A model generated the notes under the pieces. The model did no database searches and was not told where the DNA came from. It saw nothing but the letters and a program-made list of their open reading frames with translations. From the NCBI RefSeq assembly GCF_013315695.1, contig NZ_CP054353.1: a stretch of DNA of 64,000 bases, one strand, 5' to 3'. Below, one piece after another: positions 17,230 through 33,156 of this stretch. Position 1 is the first letter of the stretch. Each line of letters opens with the position of its first letter. This DNA is from Escherichia coli (GTDB lineage: Bacteria; Pseudomonadota; Gammaproteobacteria; Enterobacterales; Enterobacteriaceae). Position numbers and translations under genes: made by a program.

Positions 17230-17257
17230 TTGATTTTTCCGGAATCTGTGGTAAATT
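17230..17257 (+). promoter_or_regulatory. Late promoter pR'-like
   Basis: TTGATT, 16 nt, TAAATT immediately downstream of Q, same -10 hexamer as lambda pR'. Confidence 0.6.
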
Positions 17258-17306
17258 CGTCATAACGATGGGCCTTTTATGCCTGACGTTAGAAGAGTTT
17301 CTACAA

Positions 17307-17331
17307 CCCGCCGCCGAGCGGGTTTTTTATT
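17307..17331 (+). terminator. tR'-like intrinsic terminator
   Basis: cccgccgccgagcggg hairpin followed by ttttttatt about 45 nt downstream of the putative late start. Confidence 0.65.
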
Positions 17332-17367: not shown

Positions 17368-17443
17368 GGCCCTTTAGCTCAGTGGTGAGAGCGAGCGACT
17401 CATAATCGCCAGGTCGCTGGTTCAAATCCAGCAAGGGCCACCA
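17368..17443 (+). tRNA. ileZ: Prophage tRNA with CAU anticodon, Ile2 (lysidine) type, ileZ-like
   Basis: GGCCCTTTAGCTCAGTGGTGAGAGCGAGCGACTCATAATCGCCAGGTCGCTGGTTCAAATCCAGCAAGGGCCACCA; close to host ileX in sequence. Confidence 0.85.
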
Positions 17444-17543: not shown

Positions 17544-17617
17544 GCGTTGTTAGCTCAGCCGGACAGAGCAATTGCCTTCTAAGCAATCGGTCACTGGTTC
17601 GAATCCAGTACAGCGCG
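17544..17617 (+). tRNA. Prophage tRNA-Arg (UCU), argO/argN-like
   Basis: Acceptor GCGTTGT/ACAGCGC, D-stem GCTC/GAGC, anticodon stem ATTGC/GCAAT with loop CTTCTAA, T-arm ACTGGTTCGAATCCAGT; no encoded CCA. Confidence 0.8.
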
Positions 17618-17730
17618 CTATATTCATTCTTCCAGATTCCTTCCGGCAGAGCCTTATACTGAAATATACCTGGCTCAGGATATTGTTGAAAATATTATAT
17701 GTTTGTCAAAAATAAAAGTTCTGTTAAGTA

Positions 17731-18084
17731 TTGATTGAGTGTTTGTTATACGGTCTAATGGTTTTTTCAGCATTAAATATTTATCATTCATATGGTGTGG
17801 GTAGAGTGAATATTGATGAGGCGTCGGGGTGTTTCATCCTTAGGCAGCGTATTGATATAGTCAATGCAGCACGAGCAAAGGCCTTCAGCCGTTTGACAGT
17901 TTTGTTCTGTACTCCTGATCGTCTTTCGGGAAGAGACGTTATTATTCTGAATAGTGATGCTATTCAGAGGGTTTGCGATGAGTTCATGGTTGCTAATTCA
18001 GAATTATTTGCTCTTGTTCAGGAGTACAACAGAATAGCCAGGACCTGTGGTATGGATGAACTTCGGATTACTCATCTGGGGTAG
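17731..18084 (+). CDS. Hypothetical ORF in an AT-rich moron region (start uncertain)
   Basis: Open frame with TTG/ATG starts and no clear RBS. Confidence 0.3.
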   Translation: MIECLLYGLMVFSALNIYHSYGVGRVNIDEASGCFILRQRIDIVNAARAKAFSRLTVLFCTPDRLSGRDVIILNSDAIQRVCDEFMVANSELFALVQEYNRIARTCGMDELRITHLG

Positions 18085-18531
18085 ATACATATCTGGATTA
18101 TCACTTGTTACGGTAAAAAGTGATTGCTTACTGTTTTTGTGAGTGGCATTGCAGCAGCCGGATAATGTCAGTGCTGGCTGACGGTGTGCTGGTGGCGGGT
18201 GTGGTGGTTGTTGCTTTCCCGTTGCTGAAAAAGAAAACGCCAGACTGTTAGCCGGGTATCAGTTAGCGGGAGAAATTTTTAAATACTTCACAATTCAGGC
18301 GGTTGACTGTTGTCTGGTTTGCGGGGAGTTTGTTAAAAGAAACTGGCATGGTGAATCCCCCTGTGCGGAGGGGCAATCAGCGAGTAGGTATATGGGATAA
18401 TCGCGGATTCAGGTGCTGGTACTGAATTCACCGGGAGGCACCCGGCACCATGCAATGGCACATAGCGCCACTCTCCAGCCCCTCTCCGGAGGGGCTGTTT
18501 ATATTGATTTTGTCAGATGTGAGTAAACTCC

Positions 18532-18867
18532 TTATGGACTTTGTTGTTTTAGTCCATAAGGACATATTTGCAGAGTGCAACGGTTATTAAAGCATTCATT
18601 CAATACGTTATCTGTATTTGTAGGACATTCCTGGCTGTTTTTGATTAAATTCCAGAATGTTTTATTGAATGGTGCTACGTTGTAAATGGTTACAGGTAGC
18701 ACTTTGTTATTGAGCATGATACCTGTGTGAGTCAGTGTAAATATACTTTCAGGAGGTAAGAAAGCATCCGATTGATACCAGATTATTAATTTTATTTTAC
18801 TCCATATGACTGAAAAAGATATTCCGCATGATGGCTGGATAACTGTATCAATCACAATCCACTTCAT
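18532..18867 (-). CDS. Hypothetical Cys-containing protein, 111 aa, reverse-strand moron
   Basis: Strong RBS AAGGAAA 5 nt before ATG; GC about 35 percent; opposite strand to the late operon. Confidence 0.5.
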
Positions 18868-19127
18868 TTAGTTTCCTTGTTTATGTCTTGCTGGTGATGT
18901 TCTGAAAAGTATAAATGATATTTTTGAATGTAAACCATAGAGCAGAATTATTTTTCTGATGTTGTTTATTGTTTATTTAAATGCAGGGTGGTTTATATCT
19001 CGTCTTGTAGTTTATCCATGCATATCTGCTTGATGATGAGGTTTTTATTTAAGGTATGGTTTTGTGTTTTTTCTGTATTACATGTCAGGTATTTTAAAGA
19101 ATTATTTTTCAGATGGTGGAAAGAACC

Positions 19128-21089
19128 ATGGCATTTAAACACTATGATGTTGTCAGGGCGGCATCGCCGTCAGACCTTGCGAAACGACTGACACAAAAAC
19201 TGAAGGAGGGGTGGCAGCCATTTGGCAGTCCGGTGGCCATCACGCCTTATACCCTGATGCAGGCCATTGCGGCGGAAGGTGATGTCACCACACCTGTGGT
19301 GGTGAAGCCGTCGGATGGAGAAGGCGCAGTTATCAGCAACACCAGCAACCCGGAGTATTACTTTGTTGTTGCCCTGGCCGGGCAGTCAAACGGTATGGCG
19401 TATGGTGAAGGGCTTCCGCTGCCGGAGACATATGACCGTCCGGACCCGCGTATTAAACAGCTGGCGCGTCGCAGCACTGTCACGCCGGGTGGTGCGTCCT
19501 GTAACTACAATGACATTATTCCTGCGGACCACTGCCTGCATGATGTTCAGGATTTGAGTAAGTTTTCACACCCGAAAGCCAGCGCAGCTCAGTATGGATG
19601 CGTGGGGCAGGGATTACATATCGCGAAGAAATTGTTGCCGTTTATTCCGGCGAATGCCGGTATTCTTCTGGTTCCGTGCTGCCGTGGTGGTTCTGCATTT
19701 TTGGCGGGCGATGAAGGTACCTTCAGCGAATCCACCGGCGCAAGCGAGACCTCGGCACGCTGGGGTGTAGATAAGCCACTGTACAAGGACCTGCTTACCC
19801 GTACTCAGGCCGCACTGAAGGCCAACCCTAAAAATATTCTGCTTGCAGTGGTCTGGATGCAGGGCGAGTTTGATTTGAAACAGGGTGCATACGCCACTCA
19901 GCCGGGGCTGTTTGATTCCATGGTGGAAAAATATCGTTCTGACCTGTCGGAATTCGGAGGTCAGTGTCTCGGGGGCTCTCCGTCATCAGTTCCCTGGATT
20001 TGTGGCGACACGACCTACTACTGGAAGCAGACTTATTCTTCGCAATACGATGCGGTGTATGGTGCATATAAGACGAAATCCGCAAAAAAAATCTTCTTTG
20101 TGCCGTTTATGACGGATGAAAACGGGCGAAATGTGGGTACCAACGAGCCGTCAGAAGATCCGGATGTTGCGGATATTGGGTATTACGGAGCCGGTGGTCG
20201 AACGGACGCCAAAACCTGGACGACGGCTGACCGTAAAACGCATTTTGGATCATGGGCACGTCGTGGGATTATTTCCGACCGTCTGGCAACGGCGATTCTT
20301 GTGCATGCCGGGAGAACCGCTGAATTCATTACCGGAAAACAGCCTGATACGGTGAAGCCCACCGGACCTTCCGGTGAAGGTACGGAGAGAGAGCCGGAAG
20401 GTCCGGTCAGTAACCGAACCCTGATGAGTCTGCTGGCGTCCGGCGAAGACCTGGCATCACAGGGCTGGCGCTATTATCACAAACCGGCGAGCGGAGACAA
20501 TGTTAACAAAAACATTGCTGAAGCGGTGGTCAGTGATGCGGGGGCTACGGGAGGTAAGGCCCTGCAACTGAATAAACCGGAAAACCACATCTGGTTTCTG
20601 GAGCATGATGCAGCCGGGCAGGGGGCAGAGTTGCTGAAGAAAGGAGGACGTGTGAGCGTACGGTTTAAGTTGCCGGGTTCACTGGTGCCGAATCAGTTTG
20701 CCCTGGGCATTTACTGGCAGTTGTCGTCCCTGCCGGAGGGAGTGACGCTGGCAGAGGAAGGCAACGACATGCTGATGTCCTTCTTTCTGCAGACGGATGC
20801 GACGAACCTGAACGCGATGCACCACAAGAAGCCGAATGCGAAGCTGGAAACGTTCGGGGTCTTTGATAACGGATGGCACACACTGGCTTTTGAGTTTGCC
20901 GGAAACAACAGCATTCAGGTGACGCCGGTACTGGATGAGAAACGGGGGACGCCGTTCACACTGGTGAAATCTCCGGCATCAGGGGCGGCGGACAAACTGC
21001 AACTGACAGGCATATCAAAGGCGGCGACATATACGCTGCTGATTGACAGTGTGAAGGTGGAAGTGAACAACGCGGATGCCGCGGCATGA
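19128..21089 (+). CDS. nanS: Prophage NanS-p-type sialate O-acetylesterase (N-terminal DUF1737-like plus SGNH-type esterase)
   Basis: MAFKHYDVVRAASPSDLAKRLTQKLKEGWQPFGSPVAITPYTLMQ... then ...FVVALAGQSNGMAYGEG...; 653 aa. Confidence 0.7.
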   Translation: MAFKHYDVVRAASPSDLAKRLTQKLKEGWQPFGSPVAITPYTLMQAIAAEGDVTTPVVVKPSDGEGAVISNTSNPEYYFVVALAGQSNGMAYGEGLPLPETYDRPDPRIKQLARRSTVTPGGASCNYNDIIPADHCLHDVQDLSKFSHPKASAAQYGCVGQGLHIAKKLLPFIPANAGILLVPCCRGGSAFLAGDEGTFSESTGASETSARWGVDKPLYKDLLTRTQAALKANPKNILLAVVWMQGEFDLKQGAYATQPGLFDSMVEKYRSDLSEFGGQCLGGSPSSVPWICGDTTYYWKQTYSSQYDAVYGAYKTKSAKKIFFVPFMTDENGRNVGTNEPSEDPDVADIGYYGAGGRTDAKTWTTADRKTHFGSWARRGIISDRLATAILVHAGRTAEFITGKQPDTVKPTGPSGEGTEREPEGPVSNRTLMSLLASGEDLASQGWRYYHKPASGDNVNKNIAEAVVSDAGATGGKALQLNKPENHIWFLEHDAAGQGAELLKKGGRVSVRFKLPGSLVPNQFALGIYWQLSSLPEGVTLAEEGNDMLMSFFLQTDATNLNAMHHKKPNAKLETFGVFDNGWHTLAFEFAGNNSIQVTPVLDEKRGTPFTLVKSPASGAADKLQLTGISKAATYTLLIDSVKVEVNNADAAA

Positions 21090-21240: not shown

Positions 21241-21423
21241 ATGACATTTCTGAACCAGTTAATGCTGTACTTCTGTACGGCAGTCTGTGTTATGTATCTT
21301 CTTTCGGGTGGGTACAGGGCAGTGCGCGATTTCTGGCGCAGGCAGATTGATAAAAGGGCCGCTGAGAGAATCAGCGCCAGTCAGTCAGCCGGAAGCAAAC
21401 CCGAAGATCCGCTCATTCCGTAG
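21241..21423 (+). CDS. Small single-TM protein, 60 aa
   Basis: MTFLNQLMLYFCTAVCVMYLLSGGYRAVRDFWRR...; weak RBS. Confidence 0.3.
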   Translation: MTFLNQLMLYFCTAVCVMYLLSGGYRAVRDFWRRQIDKRAAERISASQSAGSKPEDPLIP

Positions 21424-21460: not shown

Positions 21461-21706
21461 ATGTCAGAAATCACATCCCTGGTCACTGCTGAGGCAGTGA
21501 AGGAAGTCCTGCGCTCTGAAGAAGTCCTGAGCGCACTGAAACAGAAACTCCGCCAGAACCTTGAGTCGCGTCTTGATGCAGAAGTGGATGCCATTCTGGA
21601 TGAGCTGCTGGGCGTACCAGCGGTTCCGGAGCCGGAAGGTATCGCGGGTGACGGGAGTGCTTCAGATGGCGGTGAACCCACACCTGACAGCGACATGATG
21701 ATGTAA
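21461..21706 (+). CDS. Small acidic protein, 81 aa
   Basis: [50 protein letters not shown]...; inside a longer TTG-started ORF. Confidence 0.35.
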
Positions 21707-21782: not shown

Positions 21783-21998
21783 ATGTACCAGATGGAAAAA
21801 ATCACAACAGGTGTGTCATACACCACGTCAGCGGTGGGAACGGGCTACTGGTTCCTGCAGTTGCTGGACAGGGTTTCCCCGTCTCAGTGGGCGGCAATAG
21901 GCGTGCTGGGGAGTCTGCTGTTTGGGCTGCTGACATATCTGACTAACCTGTATTTCAAAATCAGAGAGGACCGGCGTAAGGCGGCGCGGGGAGAGTAA
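21783..21998 (+). CDS. S: Class II holin, S21-like pinholin, dual-start motif
   Basis: [71 protein letters not shown]; Met1 and Met4 starts. Confidence 0.85.
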
Positions 21999-22929: not shown

Positions 22930-23463
22930 ATGAACACCAAAATCAAATACGGCCTGTCGGCTGCCGTTCTGGCGCTGATTGCCGCTGGTGCGCCTGCGCC
23001 TGACATTCTCGACCAGTTTCTGGATGAAAAGGAAGGCAACCACACCACAGCATACCGTGATGGTGCAGGTATCTGGACCATCTGCCGTGGTGCCATCATG
23101 GTGGATGGCAAACCTGTCGTTCCGGGCATGAAGTTGTCGAAGGAAAAATGCGACCAGGTTAACGCCATTGAGCGTGATAAAGCGCTGGCGTGGGTGGAGA
23201 AAAACATCAGAGTGCCGCTGACCGAACCCCAGAAAGCGGGGATCGCGTCATTCTGTCCGTACAACATTGGTCCCGGTAAGTGTTTCCCGTCGACGTTTTA
23301 TAAACGAATTAATGCAGGTGATCGCAGGGGAGCGTGTGAGGCGATTCGCTGGTGGATTAAGGACGGTGGCAGAGACTGCCGTATCCGCTCAAACAACTGT
23401 TATGGTCAGGTATCCCGTCGTGACCAGGAGAGCGCGCTGGCGTGCTGGGGAATCGACAGATAA
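22930..23463 (+). CDS. R: SAR (signal-anchor-release) endolysin, R21-like lysozyme
   Basis: MNTKIKYGLSAAVLALIAAGAPAPDILDQFLDEKEGNHTTAYRDGAGIWTICRG... Confidence 0.85.
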   Translation: MNTKIKYGLSAAVLALIAAGAPAPDILDQFLDEKEGNHTTAYRDGAGIWTICRGAIMVDGKPVVPGMKLSKEKCDQVNAIERDKALAWVEKNIRVPLTEPQKAGIASFCPYNIGPGKCFPSTFYKRINAGDRRGACEAIRWWIKDGGRDCRIRSNNCYGQVSRRDQESALACWGIDR

Positions 23464-23816: not shown

Positions 23817-23948
23817 ATGCCAGACAAACTCATAACGCTGGCGAAGATCCTCTGTGTAATTGTCGGCATTTCATTTTCACTAATGCTGGTTGCTCTTTTT
23901 CTTTCCATGGCCTGGATGATGTTGTCTTCGTCGGGGTTGCTGGGGTGA
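23817..23948 (+). CDS. Small hydrophobic protein, 43 aa
   Basis: RBS GGGAGG 7 nt before [46 protein letters not shown]. Confidence 0.4.
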
Positions 23949-23959
23949 ACATAAACCGA

Positions 23960-24418
23960 ATGCTTTCCGCGTTTATCGTTATTCTGCTGGTGGCCTGTGG
24001 TGCGCTGTGGATGGCAACAGACCATTACCGTGATAACGCGATTACCTACAAAGCGCAGCGCGATAACAAAGCCAGTGAACTGAAGCTGGCGAACGCAACC
24101 ATTACTGATATGCAGGTGCGCCAGCGCGATGTTGCTGCGCTCGATGCAAAATACTCGAGGGAATTAGCCGATGCGAGAGCTGAAAATGAAACTCTTCGCG
24201 CTGACGTTGCCGCTGGTCGTAAGCGCCTGCGGATCAACGCCACCTGTCCAGGCTCCGTGCGTGAAGCCCCCACCACCTCCGGCGTGGATAATGCAACCGG
24301 CCCCCAACTGGCAGACACCGTTACACGGGATTATTTCACCCTCAGAGAGCGGCTGATGACGATGCACAAGCAACTGGAAGGGGCACAGGACTATATCCGC
24401 ACTCAGTGCCTGAAATAA
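23960..24418 (+). CDS. Rz: i-spanin Rz
   Basis: [65 protein letters not shown]..., closely lambda-Rz-like. Confidence 0.85.
24171..24356 (+). CDS. Rz1: o-spanin Rz1, lipoprotein embedded in Rz in the +1 frame
   Basis: [51 protein letters not shown]; lipobox VSAC, Pro-rich. Confidence 0.8.
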
Positions 24419-26013: not shown

Positions 26014-26523
26014 GTGGCTACGCAGACTGAAGTTGCCAGGCATTTAAGTCTGACCGATCGCCAGCTTCGCAGATTGCAGAAATTGCCGGGTGCCCCGATA
26101 TCGAATAAGCGAGGGCAACTGGATCTGGATGCCTGGCGCGATTTTTACATATCGTATCTGAGAAGAAGTAAAAACGATGTGCCTGATGGCGATAGCGAAG
26201 ACGACTATGAGGAGAAATTGCTTATTGCCAGATGGGAACTGACAGCAGAACAGGCTGTTACACAGCAGTTAAAAAATGAGGTGTCAAAAGGAAAACTTAT
26301 TGACACCGGGTTCTGTATTTTTGCCCTCAGCAAGCTGGCAATGGCGTTATCCAGTACGCTTGATTCCATCCCTTTATCCATGCAGCGACAGTTTCCTGAT
26401 TTAACACCGCGCCATCTTGACCATCTGAAAACCCTTATTGCGAAGGGGGCAAATCAGTGTGCGCGGGCGGGGGATAAATTACCGGATTTACTCGATGAAT
26501 ATATCAGAGCAACAACTGAATAA
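26014..26523 (+). CDS. nu1: Terminase small subunit, Nu1-like
   Basis: GTG start; C-terminal half TGFCIFALSKLAMALSSTLDSIPLSMQRQFPDLTPRHLDHL... resembles lambda Nu1. Confidence 0.8.
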   Translation: MATQTEVARHLSLTDRQLRRLQKLPGAPISNKRGQLDLDAWRDFYISYLRRSKNDVPDGDSEDDYEEKLLIARWELTAEQAVTQQLKNEVSKGKLIDTGFCIFALSKLAMALSSTLDSIPLSMQRQFPDLTPRHLDHLKTLIAKGANQCARAGDKLPDLLDEYIRATTE

Positions 26524-28412
26524 TATGATGAGTGCTGTCACAACAGCATTACAGCCCCTGATAAGGGCATTGCCGGTGACGCCAGTTGAATGGGCTGATC
26601 AAAATTATTATCTGCCTAAAGAATCTTCATATGGTGAGGGAGAATGGAAAACGCTGCCGTTCCAGATCGCCATCATGAACAGCATGGGGAATGATCAGAT
26701 CCGGACTGTTAATCTGATTAAATCTGCCCGTGTTGGCTATACAAAGATGTTGCTGGGGGTGGTCGGGTATTTTATTGAGCATAAATCCCGAAACAGTCTG
26801 CTTTTTCAGCCCACGGATTCTGCCGCTGAAGATTTTATGAAGTCTCACGTGGAGGCGACGATTCGGGATGTGCCATGTCTGAAAGACCTTTCTCCATGGC
26901 TGGGGCGTAAACATCGTGACAATACTCTCACGCTGAAACGCTTTTCATCGGGTGTGGGCTTCTGGTGCCTGGGCGGCGCTGCCGCCAAAAACTACCGTGA
27001 AAAATCCGTGGACGTGGTCTGCTATGACGAACTTTCCTCGTTCGAACCGGATGTCGAAAAAGAGGGTTCGCCAACCCTGCTTGGGGATAAACGTATTGAG
27101 GGCTCTGTATGGCCCAAATCCATTCGCGGCTCGACGCCTAAAATCAAAGGCACCTGCCAGATCGAAAAAGCGGCCAACGAGTCGGCGCATTTCATGCGTT
27201 TTTATGTGCCCTGCCCGCACTGTGGGGAGGCGCAGTATCTGAAATTTGGCGATGAGTCCACGCCTTTTGGCCTTAAATGGGAGAAGGACAGCCCCGAAAG
27301 CGTTTTCTACCTCTGTGAACATCATGGCTGCGTGATCCATCAGTCTGAGCTTGACCAGAGCAACGGGCGGTGGATCTGTGAAAACACGGGGATGTGGACC
27401 CGCGACGGTCTGACGTTTTTCAGCGCTGCGGATAATGAAATTCCGCCGCCGCGCTCCATCACATTCCATATCTGGACGGCGTACAGTCCGTTCACCACCT
27501 GGGTACAGATTGTCTATGACTGGCTGGATGCACTGAAAGATCCCAACGGCCTGAAAACCTTTGTGAACACCACGCTGGGCGAGACCTGGGAAGAGGCCGT
27601 GGGCGAAAAACTCGATCACCAGGTGCTGATGGATAAGGTTGTGCGTTACACGGCTGCGGTGCCTTCCCGGGTGGTTTATCTGACGGCGGGCATTGACTCG
27701 CAGCGAAACCGTTTTGAGATGTATGTCTGGGGATGGGCTCCGGGAGAGGAAGCCTTTCTGGTGGATAAAATCATCATTATGGGGCGTCCCGATGAGGAAG
27801 AGACGCTGTTACGTGTGGATGTGGCGATCAACAAAAAATACCGCCATGCAGACGGAACCGAAATGACCATTTCCCGTGTCTGCTGGGACACCGGGGGGAA
27901 TTGTCTATCAGAGGTCAAAAAAACACGGTGTTTTCCGGGTGCTGCCGGTAAAAGGTGCATCTGTTTATGGCAAGCCGGTGATCACCATGCCAAAAACCCG
28001 CAATCAGCGGGGCGTGTATCTGTGCGAAGTGGGGACGGACACCGCAAAAGAAATTCTCTATGCCCGTATGAAAGCCGATCCCACGCCTGCGGATGAAGCC
28101 ACGTCGTATGCCATCCGTTTTCCTGATGATCCGGAGATTTTTTCGCAGACAGAGGCGCAGCAACTGGTGGCGGAAGAGCTTGTGGAGAAGTGGGAAAAAG
28201 GAAAGATGCGTCTGCTGTGGGATAACAAAAAGCGGCGTAACGAAGCGCTGGACTGCCTGGTGTATGCCTACGCGGCATTACGTGTGTCCGTGCAACGCTG
28301 GCAGCTTGATCTGGCTGTACTGGCAAAATCCCGGGAAGAAGAGACGACCCGGCCAACCCTTAAAGAACTGGCAGCGAAGCTGTCCGGAGGAGTGAATGGT
28401 TACAGTCGCTGA
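26495..28412 (+). pseudogene. A: Terminase large subunit gpA, interrupted by a +1 frameshift near 27893-27900
   Basis: N-terminal 466 aa (MNISEQQLNN...ISRVCWDTGG) and C-terminal 170 aa (...IVYQRSKKHGVFRVLPVKGASVYGKP...) both lambda-gpA-like but in different frames; junction at ccggggggaattg. Confidence 0.6.
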
Positions 28413-28602
28413 ACTGCAGGCGCTGCGTCAGGCGCGCCTTGATTTATTAACCGGTAAACGGGTGGTGTCTGTCCAGAAAGATGGTCGCAGAATTGAATAT
28501 ACGGCAGCTTCTCTGGATGAGCTTAACCGGGCGATCAATGATGCGGAGTCGGTACTGGGGACAACCCGCCGTCGCCGTCGTCCGCTGGGAGTGAGGTTAT
28601 GA
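28396..28602 (+). CDS. W: Head-tail joining protein gpW
   Basis: MVTVAELQALRQARLDLLTGKRVVSVQKDGRRIEYTAASLDEL..., lambda-W-like. Confidence 0.85.
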   Translation: MVTVAELQALRQARLDLLTGKRVVSVQKDGRRIEYTAASLDELNRAINDAESVLGTTRRRRRPLGVRL

Positions 28603-30191
28603 AACGAACGCCTGTCCTGATTGATGTGAACGGCGTTCCGCTTCGGGAGAGCCTCAGCTACAACGGTGGCGGTGCAGGATTTGGCGGGCAAATGGCAGAG
28701 TGGTTGCCACCCTCGCAGAGTGCCGATGCGGCCCTGCTGCCCGCGTTGCGTCTGGGGAATGCCCGTGCAGATGATCTGGTGCGCAATAACGGAATAGCGG
28801 CCAATGCGGTGGCCCTGCATAAGGATCACATTGTCGGGCATATGTTTCTGATCAGTTACCGTCCGAACTGGCGCTGGCTGGGGATGCGGGAGACCGCGGC
28901 AAAAAGTTTTGTCGATGAGGTGGAGGCGGCCTGGTCAGAATACGCAGAAGGGATGTTTGGTGAGATCGACATGGAAGGGAAACGCACGTTCACGGAATTT
29001 ATCCGTGAAGGTGTGGGCGTTCATGCGTTTAACGGCGAAATCTTTGTGCAGCCGGTCTGGGATACGGAGAGCACGCAACTGTTTCGTACGCGTTTTAAAG
29101 CCGTGAGTCCGAAACGGGTGGACACGCCAGGACACGGTATGGGGAACCGTTTTCTGCGGGCCGGTGTGGAGGTCGATCGATATGGTCGTGCCGTTGCGTA
29201 CCATATCTGTGAGGATGATTTTCCTCGCTCCGGGAGTGGACGATGGGAACGGATCCCGCGTGAACTTCCCACCGGGCGTCCGGCCATGCTGCATATTTTC
29301 GAGCCGGTGGAGGACGGGCAGACCCGTGGGGCCAATCAGTTTTACAGCGTAATGGAACGGCTGAAGATGCTCGATTCCCTGCAGGCAACACAGCTTCAGT
29401 CGGCCATAGTGAAGGCGATGTATGCAGCGACGATTGAAAGTGAACTTGATACCGAAAAGGCCTTTGAATATATCGCCGGTGCGCCGCAGGGGCAGAAGGA
29501 TAATCCGCTTATTAATATTCTGGAGAAGTTCTCCACCTGGTATGACACGAATAGCGTGACGCTGGGCGGTGTCAAAATTCCGCACCTTTTCCCCGGTGAT
29601 GATCTGAAACTTCAGACCGCGCAGGATTCAGACAATGGATTTTCGGCGCTTGAACAGGCGCTGCTGCGGTATATCGCCGCCGGTCTTGGCGTTTCCTACG
29701 AACAGTTGTCCCGTGATTACTCGAAGGTCAGTTATTCAAGTGCCCGCGCATCCGCCAATGAGTCGTGGCGCTATTTTATGGGGCGGCGAAAATTTATTGC
29801 GTCCCGGCTGGCCACGCAGATGTTTTCCTGCTGGCTGGAAGAGGCACTTCTTCGGGGGATTATTCGTCCGCCACGGGCGCGTTTTGATTTTTATCAGGCG
29901 CGATCAGCCTGGTCACGGGCTGAGTGGATTGGAGCCGGAAGAATGGCCATTGACGGGCTCAAGGAGGTTCAGGAATCAGTGATGCGCATTGAGGCCGGAC
30001 TGAGCACGTATGAGAAAGAGCTGGCGCTGATGGGCGAGGATTATCAGGACATTTTCCGCCAGCAGGTCAGGGAATCTGCAGAGCGGGAAAAAGCCGGACT
30101 CTCACGTCCGGTGTGGATAGCGCAGGCGTATCAGCAGCAGATAGCGGAGAGTCGCAGGCCGGAAGAGGAGACAACACCACGTGAGACGTAA
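28599..30191 (+). CDS. B: Portal protein gpB
   Basis: 530 aa, lambda-B-like; start overlaps the W stop. Confidence 0.9.
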   Translation: MKRTPVLIDVNGVPLRESLSYNGGGAGFGGQMAEWLPPSQSADAALLPALRLGNARADDLVRNNGIAANAVALHKDHIVGHMFLISYRPNWRWLGMRETAAKSFVDEVEAAWSEYAEGMFGEIDMEGKRTFTEFIREGVGVHAFNGEIFVQPVWDTESTQLFRTRFKAVSPKRVDTPGHGMGNRFLRAGVEVDRYGRAVAYHICEDDFPRSGSGRWERIPRELPTGRPAMLHIFEPVEDGQTRGANQFYSVMERLKMLDSLQATQLQSAIVKAMYAATIESELDTEKAFEYIAGAPQGQKDNPLINILEKFSTWYDTNSVTLGGVKIPHLFPGDDLKLQTAQDSDNGFSALEQALLRYIAAGLGVSYEQLSRDYSKVSYSSARASANESWRYFMGRRKFIASRLATQMFSCWLEEALLRGIIRPPRARFDFYQARSAWSRAEWIGAGRMAIDGLKEVQESVMRIEAGLSTYEKELALMGEDYQDIFRQQVRESAEREKAGLSRPVWIAQAYQQQIAESRRPEEETTPRET

Positions 30192-31686
30192 TCTTTCACA
30201 CATTATTGCCGCAGCATTCAATGAACCGCTGCTTCTGGAGCCCGCCTATGCGCGGGTTTTCTTTTGCGCGCTCGGGCGCGAGATGGGGGCAGCAAGTCTT
30301 TCGGTACCGCAACAGCAGGTACAGCTTGATGCTCCCGGGATGCTGGCTGAAACGGACGAGTACATGGCCGGAGGTAAACGACCGGCCCGTGTTTACCGGG
30401 TGGTGAACGGTATTGCGGTACTGCCGGTGACCGGCACGCTGGTGCACCGGCTGGGGGGGATGCGGCCATTTTCCGGAATGACTGGCTATGACGGCATTGT
30501 CGCCTGTCTTCAGCAGGCAATGGCAGATAGCCAGGTGCGGGGCATACTGCTGGACATTGACAGTCCGGGCGGGCAGGCCGCCGGCGCGTTTGACTGCGCT
30601 GACATGATTTACCGCCTCCGGCAGCAGAAGCCGGTCTGGGCACTGTGTAATGACACGGCCTGTTCTGCAGCCATGCTGCTGGCGTCGGCCTGCTCCCGAC
30701 GGCTGGTTACCCAGACATCCCGTATCGGCTCCATTGGCGTGATGATGAGCCATGTCAGCTATGCCGGTCATCTGGCGCAGGCCGGTGTGGATATCACGCT
30801 GATTTACTCAGGAGCGCACAAGGTGGATGGCAATCAGTTTGAAGCGTTGCCGGCAGAGGTTCGCCAGGACATGCAGCAGCGGATTGATGCGGCGCGCCGG
30901 ATGTTTGCCGAAAAAGTGGCGATGTATACCGGTCTGTCTGTTGATGCGGTCACGGGAACAGAGGCTGCCGTTTTTGAAGGTCAGTCCGGCATTGAGGCCG
31001 GGCTGGCGGATGAATTAATCAATGCGTCGGATGCCATCAGTGTGATGGCCACGGCGCTGAACAGTAATGTCAGAGGAGGCACTATGCCGCAATTAACTGC
31101 AACGGAAGCCGCCGTGCAGGAGAACCAGCGAGTGATGGGGATCCTGACATGCCAGGAAGCGAAAGGACGTGAACAGCTTGCCACGATGCTGGCAGGGCAA
31201 CAGGGCATGAGCGTTGAACAGGCCCGGGCGATTCTGGCCGCGGCGGCACCGCAGCAGCCGGTGGCATCCGCACAGAGTGAAGCCGATCGCATTATGGCGT
31301 GTGAAGAAGCGAACGGTCGTGAACAACTGGCGGCAACGCTGGCGGCGATGCCGGAGATGACGGTGGAAAAAGCCCGCCCGATCCTGGCTGCTTCACCGCA
31401 GGCGAATGCCGGACCATCACTCCGTGATCAGATCATGGCACTGGATGAGGCAAAAGGGGCTGAGGCGCAGGCTGAACAGCTGGCTGCCTGCCCGGGAATG
31501 ACTGTGGAGAGCGCCCGGGCTGTGCTGGCTGCGGGATCAGGTAAGGCAGAACCGGTCTCTGCATCCACAACCGCCCTGTTTGAACATTTCATGGCGAACC
31601 ATTCACCGGCTGCGGTCCAGGGGGGCGTGTCACAGGCGTCAGAAGACGGTGATGCGGACGTGAAAATGCTCATGGCCATGCCATGA
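30181..31686 (+). CDS. C: Head protease/scaffold gpC-like (S49-type peptidase N-domain plus repeat-containing C-terminal region)
   Basis: GTG start overlapping the B stop; three tandem ~40-aa repeats in the C-terminal half. Confidence 0.8.
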   Translation: MRRNLSHIIAAAFNEPLLLEPAYARVFFCALGREMGAASLSVPQQQVQLDAPGMLAETDEYMAGGKRPARVYRVVNGIAVLPVTGTLVHRLGGMRPFSGMTGYDGIVACLQQAMADSQVRGILLDIDSPGGQAAGAFDCADMIYRLRQQKPVWALCNDTACSAAMLLASACSRRLVTQTSRIGSIGVMMSHVSYAGHLAQAGVDITLIYSGAHKVDGNQFEALPAEVRQDMQQRIDAARRMFAEKVAMYTGLSVDAVTGTEAAVFEGQSGIEAGLADELINASDAISVMATALNSNVRGGTMPQLTATEAAVQENQRVMGILTCQEAKGREQLATMLAGQQGMSVEQARAILAAAAPQQPVASAQSEADRIMACEEANGREQLAATLAAMPEMTVEKARPILAASPQANAGPSLRDQIMALDEAKGAEAQAEQLAACPGMTVESARAVLAAGSGKAEPVSASTTALFEHFMANHSPAAVQGGVSQASEDGDADVKMLMAMP

Positions 31687-31722
31687 AGTCAGTGCTGAAC
31701 ATCAATACGAGGTTTTTACAAT

Positions 31723-32070
31723 ATGGTGACGAAAACCATCACTGAACAGCGTGCGGAAGTACGTATTTTTGCCGGTAATGATCCGGCTCACACCGCCACA
31801 GGCAGCAGCGGGATTTCCTCGGCAACACCGGCACTGACACCCCTGATGCTGGATGGGGCCACCGGGAAACTGGTGGTCTGGGACGGACAGAAAGCCGGTA
31901 GTGCGGTTGGCATACTGGTACTGCCGCTTGAAGGCACAGAGGAGGTGCTGACCTATTACAAGTCGGGGACCTTTGCGACGGAGGCAATCCGCTGGCCTGA
32001 AAGTGTGGATGAACACAAAAAGGCCAACGCCTTTACCGGCAGTGCCCTGAGTCACGCGGCGCTGCCGTAA
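31723..32070 (+). CDS. D: Head decoration protein gpD
   Basis: ...NDPAHTATGSSGISSATPALTPLMLDGATGKLVVWDG...YYKSGTF..., lambda-D-like. Confidence 0.85.
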   Translation: MVTKTITEQRAEVRIFAGNDPAHTATGSSGISSATPALTPLMLDGATGKLVVWDGQKAGSAVGILVLPLEGTEEVLTYYKSGTFATEAIRWPESVDEHKKANAFTGSALSHAALP

Positions 32071-32127
32071 CACGTTATCAGGCCACCGCGTTGGCCTGAC
32101 TGATTTCTTAATGAAAGGAACTGATTT

Positions 32128-33156
32128 ATGGGATTGTTTACGACCCGCCAGTTACTCGGTTATACCGAACAAAAAGTTAAATTCCGTGCGCTGTTTCTGG
32201 AGCTGTTTTTCCGCCGTACGGTGAATTTCCACACCGAAGAGGTGATGCTGGACAAAATTACCGGAAAAACGCCGGTGGCGGCCTATGTCTCCCCGATCGT
32301 TGAAGGAAAAGTGCTTCGCCATCGCGGTGGTGAAACCCGCGTGTTACGTCCGGGCTACGTCAAGCCCAAACACGAATTTAATTACCAGCAGGCGGTTGAG
32401 CGCCTTCCTGGTGAAGATCCGGCTCAGCTGAACGACCCGGCCTACCGTCGTCTGCGTATCATTACCGATAACCTCAAACAGGAAGAGCACGCCATTGTCC
32501 AGGTGGAAGAAATGCAGGCGGTGAATGCCGTGCTGTATGGCAAATACACCATGGAAGGGGATCAGTTTGATACTGTCGAGGTGGATTTCGGGCGCTCTGA
32601 AGGAAATAACATTGAGCAGGCTGACGGTAAAAAATGGTCTGAGCAGGACCGTGATACGTTTGATCCGACGCATGATATTGACCTCTACTGCGATCAGGCC
32701 AGCGGCCTTGTGAATATCGCCATTATGGACGGTACGGTCTGGCGTCTGCTGAATGGCTTTAAGCTGTTCCGCGAAAAACTGGATACCCGTCGCGGCTCAA
32801 ATTCACAACTCGAAACGGCAGTGAAAGACCTGGGGGCGGTGGTGTCCTTCAAGGGGTATTACGGCGATCTGGCCATTGTGGTGGCGAAAACGTCTTATGT
32901 GGCAGAAGACGGTACCGAAAAACGTTATCTGCCGGAGGGCACACTGGTCCTGGGGAATACGGCAGCAGAGGGCATTCGTTGCTATGGTGCCATTCAGGAT
33001 GCGCAGGCGTTGTCCGAAGGTGTGGTGGCCTCTTCCCGTTATCCGAAACACTGGCTGACTGTGGGCGATCCGGCCCGTGAATTCACCATGACGCAGTCCG
33101 CACCGCTGATGGTGCTGCCGGATCCGGATGAGTTTGTGGTGGTACAGGTGAAATAA
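32128..33156 (+). CDS. E: Major capsid protein gpE
   Basis: 342 aa, closely lambda-E-like (...RIEGSVWPK-type motifs, C-terminal GDPAREFTMTQSAPLMVLPDPDEFVVVQV). Confidence 0.9.
   Translation: MGLFTTRQLLGYTEQKVKFRALFLELFFRRTVNFHTEEVMLDKITGKTPVAAYVSPIVEGKVLRHRGGETRVLRPGYVKPKHEFNYQQAVERLPGEDPAQLNDPAYRRLRIITDNLKQEEHAIVQVEEMQAVNAVLYGKYTMEGDQFDTVEVDFGRSEGNNIEQADGKKWSEQDRDTFDPTHDIDLYCDQASGLVNIAIMDGTVWRLLNGFKLFREKLDTRRGSNSQLETAVKDLGAVVSFKGYYGDLAIVVAKTSYVAEDGTEKRYLPEGTLVLGNTAAEGIRCYGAIQDAQALSEGVVASSRYPKHWLTVGDPAREFTMTQSAPLMVLPDPDEFVVVQVK

Follow-up and report, generated by a model that had tools for sequence, protein, structure and literature searches.

The NanS-p family of prophage-encoded sialate O-acetylesterases has been characterised since the mid-2010s, and its members are usually cited as textbook cargo with which a prophage feeds its host. 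Here we describe a nanS-p-type gene in a 64,000-nucleotide stretch of Escherichia coli DNA (RefSeq assembly GCF_013315695.1, contig NZ_CP054353.1), referred to below as the window; we read its 653-amino-acid (aa) product, with a probability of roughly 0.6, as a three-domain sialate O-acetylesterase that belongs to the late programme of the phage, is released by lysis and is probably tethered to the capsid. The closest described systems are the NanS-p proteins of enterohemorrhagic E. coli (EHEC), namely Z1466/L0105 of phage 933W, the EDL933 and O104:H4 alleles, and vb_24B_21, or gp84, of phage phi24B, with which the window protein shares its architecture, its catalytic motifs and a slot between Q and the holin that is followed by small DUF1378 and DUF826 open reading frames (ORFs). 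EHEC alleles hydrolyse 5-N-acetyl-9-O-acetylneuraminic acid (Neu5,9Ac2) as well as mono-, di- and tri-O-acetylated mucin sialic acids (PMC8065619; PMC8319020), and they support growth on Neu5,9Ac2 (PMC8065619; PMC8319020; PMC10462455). The gene order in Shiga toxin (Stx) phages is Q-stx-nanS-p-S, usually with DUF1378 and DUF826 ORFs after nanS-p, and nanS-p transcripts increase on prophage induction in E. coli that make Shiga toxin (STEC) (PMC10462455).

A preprint on phi24B (bioRxiv 10.64898/2026.04.10.717836) places the NanS-p homologue gp84 on the virion: it is among the most abundant virion proteins, is full-length (~70 kDa) on fresh particles and processed during storage, and its residues 2-57, the DUF1737 domain, form a hexamer that plugs the pore of the central hexon on each face of the T=9 head, anchored by a loop carrying Tyr42. 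The window protein has the same overall architecture and a Tyr in the equivalent loop, but its partner would be a major capsid protein (MCP) of the lambda gpE type (PF03864), presumably in a T=7 shell, whereas gp84 sits on a T=9 podovirus head with an MCP of family PF13252. Chromosomal NanS (YjhS; PDB entry 3PT5) has a homologous SASA core and shares with the window protein the GQSN and WMQGE motifs and a Ser/His dyad without the Block V Asp; NanS is an exported, single-domain protein of ~330 aa encoded with the nan genes, whereas the window protein is a 653-aa product of a prophage late operon, has no signal-like hydrophobic segment, and carries DUF1737 plus a linker (72 aa) in front of the core and 260 aa of linker and lectin-like domain behind it, so that it is not a NanS by these features. 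Two further likenesses are more distant. The hemagglutinin-esterases of influenza C virus, toroviruses and coronaviruses are virion-displayed SGNH-fold sialate O-acetylesterases with a lectin-like domain, a functional analogy only: homology does not go further than the fold, and the window phage does not use the sialoglycan as its entry receptor. T4 Hoc, a capsid protein at the hexon centre that is proposed in the 'bacteriophage adherence to mucus' model to meet mucin glycans, is Ig-like, binds as a monomer and has no enzyme activity, whereas the window protein carries an esterase and its phi24B homologue binds as a hexamer.

The nanS-p-type ORF spans 19113..21089 on the plus strand, and its second ATG, at 19128, yields exactly 653 aa; this is also the RefSeq start of the 99.7%-identical homologue in E. 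coli S88, and it agrees with the phi24B cryo-electron microscopy (cryo-EM) structure, in which the modelled N-terminus is Met1-Ala2. The sequence-only reading of this DNA had described a 653-aa protein with a DUF1737-like region and an SGNH-type esterase core, encoded between Q and the lysis genes, and in this it was right: Pfam places DUF1737 at residues 3-50 (E 9.4e-16), a profile search for the esterase domain matches SASA (PF03629) at residues 83-274 (E 6.2e-9), residues 73-391 match NanS/YjhS of E. coli (3PT5; PDB sequence search, E 1.4e-118), and the gene lies between Q and the holin (Table 1). That reading did not mention the third, C-terminal domain, a lectin-like jelly-roll assigned to DUF6645 at residues 503-616 (Pfam, E 2.4e-43), with residues 464-648 matching 6YP6, the crystallised C-terminal domain (CTD) of phi24B NanS-p (PDB sequence search, E 5.2e-61); the protein has the full NanS-p architecture of DUF1737, SASA and lectin-like CTD. 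These domain and PDB-match E-values are far beyond chance. PHROGs assigns the protein to phrog_143 (1068 bits), and a scan of NCBIfam with the 653-aa esterase returned no family match. The exact protein is WP_174183218.1 in RefSeq, named 'SASA family carbohydrate esterase', and belongs to a cluster of 3,518 members at 90% identity; since it is already so named it is ordinary as a NanS-p-family esterase. It has two GenBank accessions, QKM90605.1 and QKM90796.1, whose close numbers within a single submission suggest two identical copies of the allele in different prophages of the source genome.

Judged by its sequence, the gene product is a genuine, intact member of the NanS-p family and represents a divergent allele class carried by a non-Stx lambda-type prophage. 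The allele occurs at at least 99% identity in 146 records of complete E. coli genomes, among them that of the extraintestinal pathogenic E. coli (ExPEC) S88, and the whole prophage arm is 99.7% identical in AVS0196 and AVS0790 and 99.6% identical in MSB1_4I. Among 50,697 phage records the best NanS-p match has 64.8% protein identity and ~75-76% DNA identity, and the window protein is 60-65% identical over its full length to any NanS-p in phage records. The earlier placement of the gene in the canonical nanS-p slot holds and the EHEC framing that came with it does not: an Stx-converting or EHEC prophage was considered and rejected, as there is no stx, no ORF longer than 117 aa and no toxin domain between Q and nanS-p, and it is in non-STEC strains, ExPEC S88 for one, that the nearest relatives of this siphovirus-like prophage reside. 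No assay of this allele class came up in the searchable literature.

Aligned to phi24B gp84, the window protein is a mosaic in which identity is very uneven from region to region. It amounts to 94% over residues 1-34, falls to 23% over residues 35-58, the type-A anchor loop PVAITPYTLMQAIAAEGDVTTP, which is 3 residues shorter than in gp84, and to 0% over the linker at residues 59-74, then returns to 72% in the SASA core, with 41% in the second linker and 59% in the CTD. Tyr41 of the type-A loop lies near the position of the phi24B Tyr42 'tooth' but is not aligned with it.

The divergence of the anchor loop is part of a wider pattern in which the N-terminal domain covaries with the head of the phage. 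We gathered from IMG/VR 166 nanS-p loci (L003-L168) with 10-kb flanks, in a set of 168 fetched; 64 loci, the window and phi24B included, were typed for every feature; loci were located by anchoring on the SASA core, and the N-terminal regular expression MAFKHYD misses 61 of them, which begin with MTFKHYD, MSIKHYD or MVFKHYD. The variable segment of DUF1737 falls into discrete types, A in the window (GSPVAITPYTLMQ), B1 in phi24B (ALISTAGYGAEFIQ), B2 (PIISNAGYGAEFIQ) and C (GGPFSSYTDDGAALIQ). From clusters of large downstream ORFs we defined four head modules: lam, with a gpA large terminase subunit (TerL), lambda-family portal, S49 protease and PF03864 MCP; X, with a distant gpA-type TerL and a ClpP-MCP fusion (PF25209); the HK97-type module Y, with a PF03354 TerL and an S78 protease-MCP fusion (PF05065); and the phi24B-type module 24B, with a PF13252 MCP. 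Anchor type A is found with lam at 25 loci, Y at 9, X at 1 and 24B at 0; type B1 with 24B at 9 loci, Y at 1 and lam and X at 0; and type C with X at 17 loci, lam at 2 and Y and 24B at 0. Over the 64 loci the adjusted mutual information (AMI) with head type is 0.65 for the N-type, compared with 0.20 for the CTD and 0.07 for SASA; the N-type result is robust, and the values for SASA and the CTD stay at or below 0.21 across clustering thresholds of 80-99%. When the loci are collapsed to 18 unique combinations the AMI between N-type and head is 0.45, a value reached by none of 5000 permutations. A single body type, S0/T1, carries anchor A, B1 or C, every time with the matching head, and among GenBank Stx phages the anchor/head pairing agrees in 7 of 7 (the MCP itself was typed in 6).

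A sliding-window association scan that began 600 nt before the start codon and ran to 4.6 kb past it locates the signal in a lone sharp peak, with AMI values of 0.71 and 0.64, over codons 20-59. Elsewhere the AMI is at most 0.27 upstream, up to 0.39 just 3' of the island, 0.08-0.23 in most of SASA and the CTD, and ~0 in the first ~900 nt past the stop codon, where the DUF1378, DUF826 and holin genes lie. Physical linkage as the cause of the association is ruled out: association is slight or absent in SASA, the CTD and the lysis genes, all of them nearer to the head genes, and likewise in the upstream flank, and proximity cannot explain an isolated 120-nt island when at least 5 kb of DNA without association lies between it and the head genes. 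Conservation among type-A proteins is highest in the N-domain (95% and 91%), with SASA at 77% and the CTD at 62%, and between types residues 35-58 fall to 36% while SASA remains at 80%. The simplest explanation is a functional coupling of the codon 20-59 segment to the head module, and capsid docking suggests itself as the nature of that coupling because the phi24B structure shows it. We found no report of a head-type-matched anchor cassette in the searchable literature that mentions DUF1737, and this is the one aspect of the gene worth following up.

The setting of the gene is that of a late phage gene. Downstream of Q lie a putative pR', with 8 of 12 consensus matches and an extended -10 as read from the sequence, and a tR'-like terminator with a 7-bp stem, 5 GC pairs and a T-run (terminator scan). 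Within 260 nt upstream of nanS-p no promoter-like site was seen on the plus strand, which is weak evidence. The third-position GC content (GC3) of nanS-p is 0.59, compared with 0.60-0.68 for the holin, R, portal and MCP genes and 0.32 for the iraM-like gene next to it. No hydrophobic N-terminal segment or signal peptide is present in the first 70 aa, where the Kyte-Doolittle maximum (11-residue) is 0.95, and release of the esterase therefore needs lysis. From the position of the gene, the pR'/tR'-like signals and the STEC literature we infer that nanS-p is transcribed from pR' under Q antitermination; composition, the absence of a signal peptide and of an evident promoter, and the rise of transcripts on induction in STEC are what one would look for in a late phage gene, not in a moron. 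The sequence-only reading had called the gene lysogenic-conversion cargo rather than a phage function, a claim that we do not sustain in view of these late-gene features, the virion location of phi24B gp84 and the covariation of anchor and head.

Esterase activity of the window allele is a strong inference from the catalytic motifs and from homologues. SASA enzymes are recognised by a Block I GQSN whose Gln, neighbour of the catalytic Ser, makes up an inverted oxyanion hole, by (H)QGE in Block III and by the Block V His; the usual Asp is missing from E. coli NanS (PMC9487903). The window protein has the complete SASA-type SGNH set of Block I Ser, Block II Gly, Block III (H/M)QGE and Block V His: GQSN at residues 85-88 with the catalytic Ser87, CCRGGS at residues 184-189, WMQGE at residues 243-247, and His372 within DRKTH at residues 368-372, where the window protein reads RKTH and Stx2a phages read RSSH, RASH or RPTH. 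Across 31 alleles that are 58-98% identical to the window protein, Q86, S87, N88, G187, Q245, G246, E247 and H372 are invariant. It is this conservation, together with the assayed activity of EHEC alleles at most 65% identical to it, from which activity is argued.

Taken together, these observations suggest the following course of events. The gene would be transcribed from pR' under Q antitermination along with the lysis and morphogenesis genes, and the signal-less enzyme would accumulate in the cytoplasm and leave it only through holin/endolysin lysis. The type-A DUF1737 domain would dock the protein on hexons of its own lambda-type (gpE) capsid, as was shown for phi24B and as the covariation suggests here, with the flexible linker keeping the enzyme off the capsid shell. 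Catalysis by the SASA core would use a Ser87/His372 dyad and a Gln86-based oxyanion hole set by the QGE motif, and the core is predicted, from its EHEC homologues, to take 7-, 8- and 9-O-acetyl groups off sialic acids, whether free as Neu5,9Ac2 or part of mucin glycans. Enzyme that is bound to particles or proteolytically shed may then alter the mucus around the burst and could aid the binding or movement of phage in mucus, and Neu5Ac might become available to surviving sibling lysogens as a by-product. The nutritional benefit seen for EHEC alleles may apply here as a by-product of lysis, and host nutrition is likely a side benefit. In the window copy, where an 11-bp TerL deletion would block DNA packaging, the outcome would be enzyme release only, free or on empty heads.

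Several points weigh against a capsid-tethered enzyme. The phi24B capsid result is a preprint and not peer-reviewed (bioRxiv 10.64898/2026.04.10.717836), and the one hexon bound by its hexamer is the flat one at the centre of each T=9 face, on the 3-fold axis, a position that a T=7 shell lacks. The head partner differs from that of gp84, the window MCP being of family PF03864 and not PF13252; binding of type-A DUF1737 to a lambda-type capsid is deduced from covariation; and the AlphaFold2 model leaves the N-domain unresolved. The 'SSP' self-processing motifs proposed for gp84 were searched for in the window allele and not found, TTP and TGP being present instead. As to the covariation itself, 4 of the 64 loci break the rule (type C on a lambda-type head in L132 and L134, type A on X in L127, type B1 on Y in L142), and these could have arisen by recent recombination and carry mismatched anchors that possibly do not bind; two MCP families unrelated by sequence, PF03864 and PF05065, go with type A, which weakens a strict lock-and-key relationship; and the 64 loci are prophages of related E. 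coli and not fully independent. With TerL frameshifted, virion display cannot currently be selected in the source strain, and the documented benefit of NanS-p, growth on Neu5,9Ac2, goes to the host (PMC8065619; PMC10462455).

The last of these points leads to the most serious competing explanation, although we consider it unlikely: that nanS-p is pure lysogenic-conversion cargo and its DUF1737 an inherited passenger without a capsid role in a lambda-type phage. Such cargo would fit the growth of EHEC on Neu5,9Ac2 and the de-O-acetylation of mucin glycans by EHEC alleles, the persistence of alleles in multiple prophages per genome (up to 8 places), here beside a broken terminase, and the absence from a T=7 shell of the hexon position used in phi24B. 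One would not expect a passenger domain, however, to be better conserved within a type than the rest of the protein, nor its variable segment to follow head type over 5 kb or more of DNA that shows no association; the lack of a signal peptide and of an evident promoter of its own, and the late-gene composition, also speak against cargo, and the broken terminase says little, since its deletion is private to the strain and uninformative on long-term selection. A virion enzyme could alternatively act on bacterial glycans, such as O-antigens or O-acetylated K1 polysialic acid, and so aid adsorption or release, a role raised as a possibility for NanS-p (PMC8065619). ExPEC backgrounds, the K1 strain S88 among them, commonly carry the allele, K1 polysialic acid bears 7/9-O-acetyl groups (PMC8319020), and display on the virion would put the enzyme at the point of contact with the cell surface; yet a capsid-mounted enzyme is poorly placed for the tail-receptor interface, the substrates tested for NanS-p are free and mucin-bound sialic acids, nothing in the window ties the gene to a capsule or O-antigen type, and this role, which has no experimental support for any NanS-p, seems to us improbable. 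That the gene is an inactive relic in a decaying prophage is hardly credible: TerL is frameshifted and truncated or insertion sequence (IS)-disrupted nanS-p copies do occur elsewhere, but the ORF is intact at 653 aa with all catalytic residues conserved, 146 complete E. coli genome records have the gene at 99% identity or more, and the TerL lesion is found in no other genome.

A late, lysis-released and probably capsid-tethered esterase thus remains our preferred reading of the window gene, and it invites a broader and more tentative one, to which we give slightly less than even odds: that DUF1737 is a swappable capsid-docking cassette of ~40 residues, with type A going with lambda-gpE and HK97-type heads, type B with phi24B-type heads and type C with the ClpP-MCP fusion, and that NanS-p proteins throughout E. 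coli prophages, the non-Stx lambda-type one of the window included, are primarily virion-displayed, mucus-modifying enzymes for which host nutrition is secondary. In commensal and extraintestinal E. coli, lambda-type and HK97-type prophages are commoner, and it is to these that the covariation extends a single cryo-EM observation made on one Stx podovirus. If this is true, many gut E. coli phages bear an active glycan-modifying enzyme on their heads, which matters for how phages behave in mucus and for scaffolds used in phage display or engineering; NanS-p would be the bacteriophage counterpart of the viral hemagglutinin-esterases; and position between Q and S would be insufficient for recognising 'moron' genes.

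The CTD and the linkers add to the differences from the EHEC proteins. In the phi24B CTD a sugar site has been proposed with the aromatics Y510, Y515, Y540 and F611 (PMC10462455). Three of the four stay aromatic in the window CTD, as F524, Y529 and F553, and the equivalent of F611 is deleted, so that the binding specificity of the window CTD may differ. The linker at residues 59-74 has a mean identity of 37% within type A. An AlphaFold2 model of the 653-aa protein, built with a 31-sequence alignment, has a mean predicted local distance difference test (pLDDT) score of 61, and only its confident C-terminal beta-sandwich and the disordered linker are usable, the N-domain and much of the core being poorly modelled.

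The lambda-type head module of the window is the candidate binding partner, and no phi24B-type TerL, portal or MCP is present in the window. Its TerL gene is split by an 11-bp deletion (ATCGATGGCGA) near 27,885, after a G6 run, which shifts the frame. A homopolymer sequencing error was considered and rejected, the lesion being an 11-bp deletion. Neither the 23 related loci nor any of the 5,426 complete E. coli genomes have it; the best match to the lesion among these genomes is 91%, which corresponds to the gap. The lesion is either a very recent inactivation of the prophage or an assembly error, and the window copy is probably unable to package DNA unless the latter applies.

Table 1. Coordinates of the features discussed in the text, numbered from the first position of the window.
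Feature	Position	Strand	Evidence or description
tRNA-Ser(CGA)	1747-1836		
Integrase	1889-2914	-	
Antiterminator Q, 273 aa	16403..17224	+	PF03589, E 2.2e-54; phrog_127, anti-termination protein Q-like
Putative pR' and tR'-like intrinsic terminator	17230..17330	+	pR' TTGATT-N16-TGgTAAATT (17230-17257); terminator 17305-17324 + T-run
tRNA-Met(CAT)	17368-17443	+	ARAGORN, Rfam tRNA
tRNA-Arg(TCT)	17544-17618	+	ARAGORN, Rfam tRNA
117-aa ORF	17731-18084	+	phrog_2873; GC 0.41; no Pfam/NCBIfam match
STnc100-family small RNA	18317-18506	+	Rfam, 132 bits (gathering score 47)
Terminator of the small RNA	18476-18497		strong
IraM-family anti-adapter gene	18532-18867	-	NCBIfam NF007393, 158.7 bits (cutoff 121)
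nanS-p-type gene	19128..21089	+	phrog_143, Pfam, PDB sequence search, S88 homologue; stop codon 21087-21089
DUF1737 domain, residues 1-58, candidate capsid anchor	19128..19301	+	Pfam, alignments, phi24B cryo-EM role
Island of association with head type, codons ~20-59	19187..19305	+	association scan; nt +59 to +177
Pro/Thr/Val-rich flexible linker, residues 59-74	19302..19349	+	pLDDT <50
SASA/SGNH esterase core, residues 75-395	19350..20312	+	3PT5 alignment, motif mapping
Catalytic Ser87 codon	19386-19388		Block I
His372 codon	20241-20243		Block V
Variable interdomain linker, residues 396-463	20313..20516	+	indels; residues 396-427 pLDDT <50 (AlphaFold2)
C-terminal DUF6645 jelly-roll, lectin-like domain, residues 464-653	20517..21086	+	6YP6, Pfam, AlphaFold2 beta-sandwich
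DUF1378 small ORF	21241-21423	+	S88 annotation
DUF826 small ORF	21461-21706	+	Pfam, E 4e-44
P21-type holin	21783-21998	+	Pfam, PHROGs
DUF1327 ORF, 297 aa	22000-22893	+	Pfam, PHROGs (phrog_1085)
Lysozyme R	22930-23463	+	Pfam, PHROGs
Rz	23945-24418	+	Pfam, PHROGs
TonB-domain ORF, 126 aa	24675-25055	+	PF03544, E 1e-12; TIGR01352
Lambda-type head module	26495..33156	+	PF05136, PF01343, PF03864
TerL gpA	26495-28412	+	frameshifted
Portal	28599-30191	+	Pfam
S49 protease gpC	30181-31686	+	Pfam
MCP, gpE-type	32128-33156	+	PF03864

The prophage adjoins tRNA-Ser(CGA), next to which its integrase gene lies, and is flanked by chromosomal mtfA-like and zinT genes, with zinT on the side opposite the tRNA-Ser and integrase. 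The order leading to nanS-p is RusA, Q, the pR'/terminator region, tRNA-Met, tRNA-Arg, the 117-aa ORF, the STnc100-family small RNA and the iraM-like gene; nanS-p is followed by the DUF1378 and DUF826 ORFs, the holin, the DUF1327 ORF between holin and lysozyme, the lysozyme, Rz, Nu1 and a gpA-type TerL, and then by the lambda-family portal, S49 protease, gpE-type MCP and gpJ tail tip. tRNAs downstream of Q are typical of lambdoid prophages. Both lie here directly downstream of the pR'/tR'-like signals, and the tRNA-Met(CAT) is possibly a lysidine-modified tRNA-Ile2, as in Stx phages. The 117-aa ORF lies between these tRNAs and the small RNA; the latter has the iraM-like gene on its other side and ends in a strong terminator. 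Proteins of the IraM type block RssB and thereby stabilise RpoS. The iraM-like gene, with a GC content of 0.34, stands immediately upstream of nanS-p on the opposite strand with a promoter-like site of its own, and has the look of a true moron, transcribed on its own within the late region. Lambda bor occupies a slot equivalent to that of the ORF just after Rz, whose 126-aa product combines a signal like that of lipoproteins (MKRRLLLLFLLSVLAVGC) with a TonB C-terminal domain; this protein could interfere with TonB-dependent uptake of phages or colicins.

Variants of the locus were seen in other prophages and phages. The S88 sibling prophage has a short YdfR-family ORF where the window has the DUF1327 ORF. 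Two IMG/VR loci, L136 and L138, encode a NanS-p-homologous SASA esterase with a wholly different, non-DUF1737 N-terminal region, which may be a different attachment module. In phage vB_EcoS-640R1 (L176, ON470612) an iraM-like gene occupies the matching slot, and a seemingly 'stand-alone' type-A DUF1737 protein at the nanS-p slot (5986-6347) is an internally deleted nanS-p, in which the N-terminal 88 residues come before a weak match, out of frame, to residues 601-647; the enzyme is gone and the anchor domain kept.

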